Shown here: piece after piece, positions 3,151 through 5,464 of the stretch
Layout of the letters: each line of letters starts with the position of its first letter
Position numbering within the stretch: position 1 is the stretch's first letter
From: Promethearchaeota archaeon
GTDB lineage: Archaea; Asgardarchaeota; Thorarchaeia; Thorarchaeales; Thorarchaeaceae
Direction: 5' to 3'
DNA: 14,064 bases
NCBI GenBank assembly: GCA_048939765.1
Contig: JBHLPF010000057.1
Location: forward strand, 1 to 14,064
Program-made: the position numbers and the translations under genes
The notes under the pieces: model-generated
The model's database searches: none
What the model was told of the DNA's origin: nothing
Seen by the model: only the letters and a program-made list of their open reading frames with translations

Positions 3151-3735
3151 TTATTTGCCAACGTTGCCCTTTGCACCAAGGGACGGCCTGATTTTCTCAG
3201 CACCCCTTCCCTTTCTTCTGAGTCCTCTACTACGCTTTCCAGCTGATGTGAGTCCGCGGCTCTCCCTGCCCTTCTGAACAGGATCACAGATCCAATTGAT
3301 TTCTGGATCGTTGTAGATGACAGGATGGTCTGGATCAACCATAATGACCTCGTGCCACACCCATTTGTGATCCGAGCCTACCCAATAGGAGTTTAGAACA
3401 CGGAGGTTCGGATACTTACGAGCTGCTCTCTCTTCAGCAATCCATCGACGGGATTTCTGAGGAGTATATTTTGTGACACCCATGCTTCTTGGCTTTCTTC
3501 CCATTCTTGGCCTTGGCTTTTCCCTCGGTCCTCTTCCAGTCTTGACTCTCGCGACTACATAGCCCTGCTTTGCTTTGTAGCCAAGTGATCGTGCACGGCC
3601 TAGTCTTGTTGGCCTGTCCAGCCTTACAATGGTGCTCTGTTTTCTCCAGACAATCAGTCTGCTCTTTACTGTTTCAGAACGTTCATGCTGTTCCTTAATC
3701 CAACTCTTATTCATGTGTCTGTATGCTGTAGGCAT
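3151..3735 (-). CDS. rpl15e: 50S ribosomal protein L15e (eL15)
   Basis: RPTRLGRARSLGYKAKQG, AEERAARKYPNLRVLNSYWVG, RGLTSAGKRSRGL. Confidence 0.98.
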   Translation of the reverse strand: MPTAYRHMNKSWIKEQHERSETVKSRLIVWRKQSTIVRLDRPTRLGRARSLGYKAKQGYVVARVKTGRGPREKPRPRMGRKPRSMGVTKYTPQKSRRWIAEERAARKYPNLRVLNSYWVGSDHKWVWHEVIMVDPDHPVIYNDPEINWICDPVQKGRESRGLTSAGKRSRGLRRKGRGAEKIRPSLGAKGNVGK

Positions 3736-3745
3736 GAAGCTACCA

Positions 3746-3866
3746 TCCTTTGTTGTAATTCATTCGCTTTGTTTGTGGTTCAGCCTCTATGGGCCACATC
3801 CCTTGCGGACGTATCCGCCTAAACAAAGGAAGTGGTTTGGCTATTCAGCCACTGTTGTTCCCCTGT
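3746..3866 (-). ncRNA. Putative structured 5' leader of rpl15e (r-leader candidate)
   Basis: On the minus strand: hairpin GCGGA-UACG-UCCGC (3805-3818), stem GUGG/CCAC with a CUGAA bulge (3775-3797), and closing stem 3821-3828/3767-3774. Lies directly upstream of eL15; an eL15-Euryarchaeota leader family is published. Confidence 0.6.
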
Positions 3867-3904
3867 AATTCGCTTTTAGGTGTAGCGATTGGTCTCCGAG
3901 TGCA

Positions 3905-4816
3905 TCATTTGAACTCTGCAATCACTTTCTCCGCTGTAAGATCCCCAACTCTAACTTGAGCTTCTGAGGTAGATGATGATACATGCGGAGTGGCAACCAC
4001 TTTTGGATGCTTGACTAATCTCCAATCGACAGGCGGTTCTTTTTCAAAGACATCAAGCCCGGCACCAGCGACTTTGTTCTCGTCCAAGGCCTTCAGAAGG
4101 GCTTTTTCATCAATAACTCCTCCTCGGGCTGTATTAATGATGAAGGCCGACTCCTTCATCATATCCAGTTCTTCTTCACCAATCAAGCCCCTTGTTTCAG
4201 GAAGGAGAGGGACATGCAATGTGACATAGTCTGCTCGCTTGAGTAGGTCTTCCATTTCTGCCCTCTCAGCACCATACTCTACACATGCTGTATCAATATC
4301 GAGAACATCGTAGGCTAGGACTTCCATCTCGAGTGCCCTTGCTCTTCTTGCTACCTCGCATCCTATCCTTCCAAAACCTATGATTCCCAATGTCTTTTGC
4401 CAGAGTTCGGTGCCTTTCAGCTTCTTCTTTTCCCACCGTTCATCTTTCATGGAACTGTCAGCCGCTGTCATTCTTCTCGATAGGGCGAACATGAATGCAA
4501 TGACCATCTCCGCCACAGAAATGGTCGGTGCTTCTGGGGTATTCAGTACTTTGACACCTCTCTCCTTTGCGGCCTCAAGGTCGACATTGTCTAGTCCCAC
4601 ACCTGCCCTCACTACAAGCTTCAATACATCTGCCGCATCGATGACGTCCTTGGTCACCTTTGTAGCACTGCGAACGACAATACAATCGAACCCCCTTATC
4701 TGGTCCTCAATCAAGCCGTCTGTTTCGCTATTCCTGATCACTACGTCATGTCCCGCGTCTTTCATCTTGGCAACAGCGGAATCTGCGACTGGGTCTGCAA
4801 CAAGTATTCGCACCAT
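3905..4816 (-). CDS. D-2-hydroxyacid dehydrogenase, short (ACT-less) D-3-phosphoglycerate dehydrogenase-like, 303 aa
   Basis: VVRSATKV, RAGVGLDNVD, GIIGFGRIG (NAD binding), INTARG, LDVFEKEP, TPH. True start MVRILVADP at 4816; the ORF-track extension to 5086 overlaps the opposite gene. Confidence 0.9.
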   Translation of the reverse strand: MVRILVADPVADSAVAKMKDAGHDVVIRNSETDGLIEDQIRGFDCIVVRSATKVTKDVIDAADVLKLVVRAGVGLDNVDLEAAKERGVKVLNTPEAPTISVAEMVIAFMFALSRRMTAADSSMKDERWEKKKLKGTELWQKTLGIIGFGRIGCEVARRARALEMEVLAYDVLDIDTACVEYGAERAEMEDLLKRADYVTLHVPLLPETRGLIGEEELDMMKESAFIINTARGGVIDEKALLKALDENKVAGAGLDVFEKEPPVDWRLVKHPKVVATPHVSSSTSEAQVRVGDLTAEKVIAEFK

Positions 4817-4924
4817 TATCTGATACCCTCTGAATATAGAGTGAGCTTGGGCCGGTAGAAAGTTCATCTTAAATTTGCTGGCTGCACGACATTTACTTAA
4901 GCACCAAACATCATCTCCAATCTC

Positions 4925-5464
4925 ATGAAGAAAGAATGGAGGCCAACCACTGCAGTAGTACCTTGTCCGGTGGTTCTTCTCAGCGTCGCAGGTGAAGAAA
5001 GACCGAATATCATTACCCTGTCTTGGGTTGCGAATGTATGCAGCAATCCGCCCACAATTGTTGCTGGGATAAGGCGTCAGCGACATAGCTATGAGATGGT
5101 GAAGAACGCTGGCGAATTTGTACTAAACATACCCTCGATCAATCAAATTGATTCCGCGGAGTTTGCTGGGACCAAGTCAGGACGTGACTTTGACAAGTTC
5201 AAGGAGTGTGATTTCACAGCTGTTCCTGCATCGAAGGTCAATTCGCCGATGATTGAGGAATGTCCCATCAATATCGAATGCAAAGTCATCAAGGTTGAGA
5301 ACGCTGGAGTCCACGACGTTTTTACGGCTGAGGTCGTAGCAGTTCATATAGATGAGTCTGTTCTAGATGAGGACGGACGATTCGTCGTATCTAAAGCGCA
5401 GCTTTTTACATATCTGCCATTGAATGGAGAATATTGGTCATTAGGCAAACGTCTGCAGGCATGA
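4925..5464 (+). CDS. Flavin reductase-like FMN-binding protein (COG1853, flavoredoxin-like)
   Basis: PCPVVLLS, NIITLSW, GEFVLNIPS, GTKSGRDFDKF, SPMIEECPINIECKV, G.HD.F.AEV. Confidence 0.92.
   Translation: MKKEWRPTTAVVPCPVVLLSVAGEERPNIITLSWVANVCSNPPTIVAGIRRQRHSYEMVKNAGEFVLNIPSINQIDSAEFAGTKSGRDFDKFKECDFTAVPASKVNSPMIEECPINIECKVIKVENAGVHDVFTAEVVAVHIDESVLDEDGRFVVSKAQLFTYLPLNGEYWSLGKRLQA

Follow-up and report, generated by a model that had tools for sequence, protein, structure and literature searches.

A Thorarchaeal eL15 leader of the RF03144 family with a lineage-specific extension that may switch access to the Shine-Dalgarno sequence of rpl15e

How ribosomal proteins control their own synthesis through mRNA leaders is understood in detail for bacteria and barely for archaea. 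Bacterial leaders such as those of E. coli S15, L20 and S4 trap or hide the Shine-Dalgarno (SD) sequence, and archaeal L7Ae autoregulates via a kink-turn in its own 5' UTR. For the eL15 leader, a predicted element, no mechanism has to our knowledge been put forward. The Thorarchaeal form described here is similar to the E. coli leaders in that an rRNA-like r-protein site appears coupled to a helix or pseudoknot at the ribosome-binding site. It differs from them in having no sequence or structural homology, in its archaeal/eukaryotic-specific ligand, and in that the coupling is one we infer. It also resembles L7Ae autoregulation, where, as proposed here, an archaeal r-protein binds a mimic of its rRNA site in the leader, and the two rRNA sites are neighbours on 23S; however, the present loop departs from a standard kink-turn, and the gene under control would be rpl15e.

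The closest described system is the Rfam family RF03144, reported by Eckert and Weinberg in 2020 (PMC7247131), who proposed rRNA mimicry and noted a partial likeness to the bulged-G module at the eL15 site of 23S rRNA. Since no gene other than rpl15e consistently follows the motif, the same authors proposed that eL15 is the ligand; they also reported transcripts that start 33 nt before the motif in H. volcanii and 6 nt before it in T. kodakarensis (PMC7247131). The main text of that paper does not mention a Shine-Dalgarno sequence, ribosome binding site, or start codon, and the searchable parts of its supplements do not mention Asgard or Bathyarchaeota. Our literature searches found no experimental test of the family and nothing relevant on ribosomal leaders in Asgard archaea. 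The locus analysed here shares with RF03144 its position and strand before rpl15e, helix P2, helix P3 with the GAUGU/GAA loop, and an A-rich tail, together with the proposed logic of rRNA mimicry and eL15 autoregulation. The 48-nt RF03144 model has neither an outer helix nor an SD-sequestering strand; the Thorarchaeal form adds a 5' hairpin that is conserved and a 5' strand that never varies and could pair with either of two partners.

The window, that is, the whole 14,064-nt stretch of DNA that was analysed, contains a 169-nt gap on the minus strand between a D-2-hydroxyacid dehydrogenase gene (3905-5086, minus) and rpl15e (3151-3735, minus), which encodes a protein of 194 aa matching Pfam PF00827 (Ribosomal_L15e) with 244.9 bits. 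This gap is the leader locus. A cmscan search of the window returned a single Rfam match, RF03144, at positions 3772-3818 of the minus strand, with 49.8 bits against a gathering score of 33.7 (E = 4e-7) and full-length coverage of the model (positions 1-48 of 48). The core ends 36 nt upstream of the rpl15e ATG (3735) on the same strand and lies in the predicted 5' UTR. A reading made from the sequence alone had suggested homology to the published eL15 leader, which this search bears out; the euryarchaeal setting that it implied does not hold, as the leader family here belongs to Thorarchaeota. RF03144 is named for Euryarchaeota, whereas the host here is a Thorarchaeote (Asgard), and the label is not a structural criterion of the family. 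We regard the element as a Thorarchaeal copy of the known family, and a new, lineage-specific SD-sequestering extension as a good hypothesis that falls short of proof. Closely packed 3' of rpl15e on the same strand are genes for a PF01877 protein, Rpp30 and Pop5; coupling of the RNase P protein genes to control by the leader is speculation.

All secondary structure elements of the RF03144 consensus are found in the core, on the minus strand. P2 is the hairpin GCGGA-UACG-UCCGC (3818-3805), exactly as the sequence-only reading had drawn it. P3a consists of GG (3802-3801) paired with CC (3778-3777), followed by an internal loop of GAUGU (3800-3796) facing GAA (3781-3779), and P3b is formed by GGCC (3795-3792) and GGCU (3785-3782), within the family consensus of GG/CC, GAUGU/GAA and a GGCC(C)/(G)GGCU hairpin. 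An unpaired, A-rich tail, ACAAAC, makes up the 3' end of the core. Covariation supports P2 and P3 in Thorarchaeal and halobacterial leaders. Specifically, the fifth P3b pair is C-G in 35, U-A in 7 and U-G in 3 Thorarchaeal leaders; among 30 halobacterial leaders, P3a is GG/CC in 18 and GA/UC in 11, and the P3b triplets after AUGUG take nine different complementary forms, perfect in 29/30. The sequence-only reading had instead placed P3 in the register GUGG/CCAC with a CUGAA bulge, whose key pair would be A.C in 11 of the 30 halobacterial leaders; we rejected this register because the halobacterial covariation backs that of Rfam. The core loop does not have the 3-nt bulge and tandem sheared G.A and A.G pairs of a standard kink-turn: in the Rfam register its strands, G-A-U-G-U and G-A-A, allow one G.A at most, and position 2b is U.

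The core also shares a short sequence with 23S rRNA. Its segment GGGAUGUGG is identical to a segment of this genome's 23S rRNA, and the 3.37-Mb assembly contains just two copies of the pattern GGGAUGUGG-N10-CUGAAC, one in the leader and one at 23S position 296. The corresponding 23S region (positions ~268-321; contig C41:36572-36625) reads ACCGAAUCC-hairpin-GGGGAUGUGG...CUGAAC, with the 9-mer and the 6-mer spaced as in the leader. Across 30 Thorarchaeal 23S genes, ACCGAAUCC-hairpin-GG(G/A)GAUGUGGUGU is invariant, as is G(G/A)GAUGUGG with its preceding hairpin. The CUGAAC half of the likeness is confined to two genera, the others having G(A/G)AC. Plain identity between core and 23S (17/25) is not significant, being reached by 41 of 1000 shuffles, and a generic local alignment of leader and 23S was uninformative. 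Second genomic copies of the 9-mer/6-mer pattern in three other genera proved not to be rRNA. The rRNA genes appear to be unlinked in this assembly, as the 16S gene is on contig C94 and the 23S gene on contig C41, and the 4 kb that follow the 16S 3' end contain no 23S signature.

The Rfam LSU consensus has a large internal loop flanked by a hairpin stem on one side and a closing stem, CCG/UGG, on the other, and GAUG belongs to the 3' strand of this loop. The leader P3 loop may thus be read as the 23S loop (A-GAUG-B facing B'-RAW-A') with the capped helix swapped, that is, circularly permuted, and the core-23S identity is in line with rRNA mimicry. From its position, we take the 23S stem to be helix 15 (Kt-15), where eL15 lies beside L7Ae. 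Because the core copies this presumed eL15 site, it is a putative binding site for free eL15, which would be the ligand and would repress rpl15e. L7Ae must also be weighed as the ligand, alone or together with eL15, in which case the leader would tie rpl15e to L7Ae or to the status of ribosome assembly; the idea arises because the core resembles the presumed Kt-15 stem, where both proteins sit. L7Ae and L15e together form the pocket that holds the extruded uridine of KT-15 (PMC1808587), and the match of GGGAUGUGG and the preceding hairpin to the host's own 23S falls in the stem with the large internal loop. We nevertheless consider L7Ae improbable as the ligand: GAUGU/GAA lacks the tandem G.A/A.G of a standard kink-turn and has U at 2b, the authors of the family describe a partial bulged-G module instead, and rpl15e is the sole gene consistently downstream (PMC7247131).

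To compare the flanks of the core, we aligned 61 distinct Thorarchaeal leaders. Outside the 48-nt model there are three near-invariant blocks: (C)CAUU(U)CCUUUGU just 5' of P2, CACAAACAAAG(C/U)GAAU just 3' of the motif, and (A/G)CAAAGGA(U/A)GG, located 8-15 nt upstream of the start codon. Free variation is seen in the P3 loop, the spacers, and the upstream hairpin. The first block contains the 5' switch strand UUCCUUUGUUU (3821-3831, minus), an anti-SD-like pyrimidine strand whose portion UUCCUUUGU is invariant in all 61 aligned leaders. A search of metagenomes for natural variants yielded ~47 more Thor-type leaders, all with the same strand, for a total of ~110. The third block contains the distal partner AACAAAGGA (3754-3746), which overlaps the Shine-Dalgarno sequence AGGAUGG (3749-3743), so that the feature as a whole spans 3743-3754 of the minus strand. 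The AGGA ends 10 nt before the ATG at 3735, where the sequence-only reading had put it, and the strings that it quoted were all recovered at their minus-strand coordinates, namely CUUUGUUU (3828-3821), AAACAAAG (3774-3767), UCCUUUGUU (3830-3822), AACAAAGGA (3754-3746) and ACAGGGGAA (3866-3858).

The pairing between the 5' strand and the SD region is conserved across the lineage. Eight pairs of the 9-bp anti-SD helix proposed earlier are kept in 60-61 of the 61 leaders (alignment columns 9-16, UCCUUUGU, with columns 92-99, RCAAAGGA), and RNAalifold, run without an input structure, returns this helix along with P2, P3a and P3b. The helix has 29 substitutions, distributed over its columns as 22, 6 and 1; every one replaces A by G opposite a U, and none is a transversion. 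The column next outward varies through all four bases. The A and G states are both present within at least six genera, pointing to repeated substitution events; as transitions are a frequent class of change in any case, the statistical weight of this is low. When folding was constrained to contain the Rfam core, the anti-SD helix was part of the optimal structure in 59/61 leaders, and this state is on average 3.4 kcal/mol more stable than the alternative with P1, the helix formed by the proximal partner. In the unconstrained partition function, the probability of the anti-SD helix exceeds 0.5 in 57/61 leaders (median 0.91). The 3' end of the 16S rRNA of this genome is GGAUCACCUCCU, with which AGGA(U)GGU pairs with one bulge; this accounts for the conservation of GGA(U/A)GG but not for that of the (A/G)CAA in front. 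CAAAGGA(A/U)GG occurs in 33 copies genome-wide, mostly away from gene starts, and is not a general ribosome-binding context in this genome.

The second partner of the invariant strand lies immediately downstream of the core. This proximal partner, AAACAAAG (3767-3774, minus), is complementary to the 5' strand, forms the 3' strand of P1, and is a candidate decoy that would free the SD. P1, the outer helix of the sequence-only reading, held in part: six of its eight pairs are kept in at least 55 of the 61 leaders, whereas one pair is unpaired in 43. The changes in P1 are G-U-compatible ones only, and its predicted probability never exceeds 0.31 in unconstrained folding of the 61 leaders. In divergent genera that have no AAACAAAG, replacement sequences pair with different stretches of the same invariant 5' strand: AACACGAAG-type proximal sequences with CUUUGUGUU (9 bp), CAAGGAAU with AUUCCUU, and ACAAGGGAAU with AUUCCUUUGU (10 bp). 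This looks like selection for complementarity and not for a fixed sequence. The proximal block resembles the tail-plus-SD region of Methanoperedens leaders (AAAACAAAGGAGAAU), and may therefore be, as a conjecture, a relic of a duplicated SD region.

The sharing of one strand by two exclusive helices can be read in another way. According to this alternative, the leader is a plain RF03144 element without a switch, whose 48-nt core acts on its own, for instance by steric block of the ribosome or by mRNA destabilisation; the invariant flanks would be protein-contact or other signals, and the complementarity would arise incidentally, where a pyrimidine strand meets SD-like tracts rich in purines. 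Such a leader would explain why double-sided covariation is absent from both outer helices (no pair has changed on both sides in the 61 leaders, and the RNAalifold covariation term is -0.35 kcal/mol) and why the 5' strand never varies. The compensatory test has no power here because the 5' strand is invariant in ~110 leaders, and this invariance fits a strand with several partners and a protein-contact site equally. The duplexes, moreover, score only moderately above shuffles, beating composition-matched controls (p <= 0.05) in 64% of leaders for the proximal and 71% for the distal partner, with unimpressive controls for P1; this result is modest because a U/C-rich strand pairs easily with A/G-rich flanks. 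A leader without a switch does not account, however, for substitutions on the SD side that are confined to G-U-compatible ones, for a proximal strand that changes sequence in four variants and remains complementary, or for edges of conservation that coincide with the edges of complementarity in the 61 leaders. Weighing both sides, we find the plain leader rather unlikely. The central claim of the sequence-only reading, that a single pyrimidine strand can pair with partners that exclude each other and that one of these spans the SD region, is upheld by conservation and folding: two exclusive helices share one strand, one of them includes the SD, and both are conserved. As double-sided covariation is lacking, the switch is a well-supported hypothesis and not a demonstration.

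The leader in the window is itself an outlier in folding. Its folding energy is not unusual against shuffles (z = -1.6 and -1.9), and for this reason the support for the switch comes from conservation and not from the single sequence. Its 5' strand prefers GCAAGGGA (3805-3798), inside the motif, with a probability of 0.87 that drops to ~0 in other leaders, and its own SD helix reaches a probability of only 0.11. This deviating fold results from a U-to-C change at 3832 (CCACUUCC). In the minimum-energy fold of the window's leader, 3798-3805 pairs with 3823-3830, and CCAC/GUGG joins 3794-3797 to 3832-3835, which would break P3. The internal pairing with GCAAGGGA plus CCA/UGG is canonical in 93.8% of alignment cells. 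We considered it as a part of the switch model and set it aside as an unexplained side observation, as it is dominant in the window only.

Promoter elements upstream place the invariant strand within the predicted transcript. A promoter block, AATCGCTACACCTAAAAGCGAAT (3868-3890, minus), appears as CG(C/T)TACA(C/T)CTTTAAG(C)(G)AA at constant distance in nearly all of ~60 Thorarchaeal loci; the window's own copy reads CGCTACACCTAAAAGCGAA and contains the TATA-like box CTAAAAG (3879-3873, minus), which is CTTTAAG in most relatives. This BRE/TATA-like block lies ~45-50 nt upstream of the (C)CAUU(U)CCUUUGU block in nearly all loci. From the usual archaeal TATA-to-start spacing, the transcript is predicted to start near 3852-3848, which would be ~30 nt upstream of the core and so 5' of the switch strand. 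The sequence-only reading called for a start no further downstream than about 3800, and the predicted position agrees, as far as a prediction goes. Scans for sigma-70 promoters and terminators, which are not applicable to archaea, gave nothing useful. The predicted transcript would begin with hairpin P0, UGGCU-gaau-AGCCA (3838-3851, minus). Nearly all relatives have a stable hairpin at the same position, with folding energies of -9 to -29 kcal/mol and unrelated sequences, so that its presence is what is conserved.

These coordinates also bear on the third partner that the sequence-only reading had assigned to the switch strand, ACAGGGGAA (3866-3858), together with the AGUGG/CCACU hairpin that it was thought to extend. 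We rejected this partner because it falls inside the promoter spacer, between the TATA-like box (3879-3873) and the predicted start, and is common only to the closest species. The model proposed in full, a three-way junction with the GUGG/CCAC P3 and the third partner, draws on strings that do exist and are complementary in this one sequence; with its third partner outside the predicted transcript and a P3 register that fails in Halobacteria, it retains very little probability.

Leaders of other lineages show a related architecture where the 5' leader is long. The halobacterial form, like the Thorarchaeal one, has a long 5' leader, a 5' hairpin, and an outer helix next to the SD. In 30 halobacterial leaders, P2 is immediately preceded by CGGGC; on the 3' side, (A)CGCCCG lies 5-6 nt past the motif and directly abuts the SD, GGUGA. 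Their outer helix is built from unrelated sequences and has a single 3' partner beside the SD, in contrast to the proximal and distal partners of Thorarchaeota, and its competitor appears to be the 5' hairpin CGCUGG/CCAGCG. Halobacterial leaders carry two CGGGC copies, and the 3' strand of the hairpin overlaps the second; this overlap suggests that competing structures are arranged there too. A leader from another Asgard family (n = 1) contains GC(U)CUUG and CAAGGC, then GGAGGU. Lineages with long 5' leaders thus appear to place an outer helix at the same 3' position by the SD, using unrelated sequences in each case.

In lineages with short 5' ends, the arrangement is different. The TATA boxes of Bathyarchaeia and Methanoperedens leave ~6-10 nt before P2, the SD is closer to the motif, and we found no consistent complementarity that would form a P1-like helix in either group. 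The Bathyarchaeial TATA box is strong (GGTTTATTTT, ~6-10 nt before P2). In four Bathyarchaeia leaders, GUGAAAUUG appears twice, once immediately 5' of P2 and once inside the SD region (GAGGUGAAAUUG), as a direct repeat and not as a complement. That Bathyarchaeia, Methanoperedens and T. kodakarensis, whose transcript starts 6 nt before the motif, work without the 5' strand is a further point in favour of a core that acts alone.

Taking the Thorarchaeal evidence together, we lean, with moderate confidence, towards a leader in which an rRNA-like core is combined with an invariant strand that would switch between an SD-closing helix and a proximal decoy. Free eL15 would bind the rRNA-like core and its A-rich tail. 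Because the tail of the core overlaps the proximal partner, eL15 binding would disfavour the decoy helix. In the off state, UUCCUUUGU would pair with ACAAAGGA, closing a multi-branch junction around the core and burying the SD; in the on state, UUCCUUUGU would pair with the proximal AAACAAAG and leave the SD free. With eL15 in excess of free rRNA, the SD would be hidden and translation of rpl15e would go down; without surplus eL15, the helices would exchange, and ribosomes would capture the open form. Nearest-neighbour folding predicts the SD-closing state as the ground state; that so highly expressed a gene should be off by default is odd and counts against the model. The data show family membership, the conservation and complementarity of the strands, and the predicted energetics; we infer where the transcript starts, which ligand binds, which state the protein stabilises and in which direction it acts. 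A broader formulation, which we put forward tentatively, is a bistable switch whose permuted copy of the 23S loop senses eL15, perhaps together with L7Ae, and whose strand moves from the decoy to the SD; the same may hold in Halobacteria with other sequences.

The RF03144 motif is found in 79 of 85 other genomes of the host's family and in 16 of the 17 genera of its order. In a sample of the phylum, it is present in 37/37 genomes of the host's family and in one of two genomes of one further family, and searches with Infernal under stricter filters did not detect it in the remaining 21 families sampled. An exact-pattern scan of species-representative genomes recovered the same flanks in records of Candidatus Thorarchaeota, including the closed genome CP070761. 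Upstream of rpl15e, the same scan also located the core in many Bathyarchaeia (Thermoproteota) and in Methanoperedens, ANME-2, Methanosarcinaceae, Methanogenium and Halobacteriales. The family name "Euryarchaeota" is too narrow, because the core is also present in Thorarchaeota and Bathyarchaeia. Many of the bacterial pattern matches fall in one conserved coding stretch (GGATGTGGCCTTCCC(G/C)(C/A)GGCTGAACC). The bacterial matches look like chance, and the coding stretch resembles a conserved protein motif unrelated to the leader.

The gain from these results is moderate, since the family was known and its ligand is a presumed one. The Thorarchaeal form offers a concrete, testable mechanism, with short and well-defined parts that suit mutational tests. 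If true, the bistable-switch reading would give Asgard archaea their first mechanistic model of feedback by a ribosomal protein. The eL15 leader extends past Euryarchaeota to Asgard archaea and Bathyarchaeia, and this distribution bears on the age of eL15 feedback in the lineage nearest eukaryotes.
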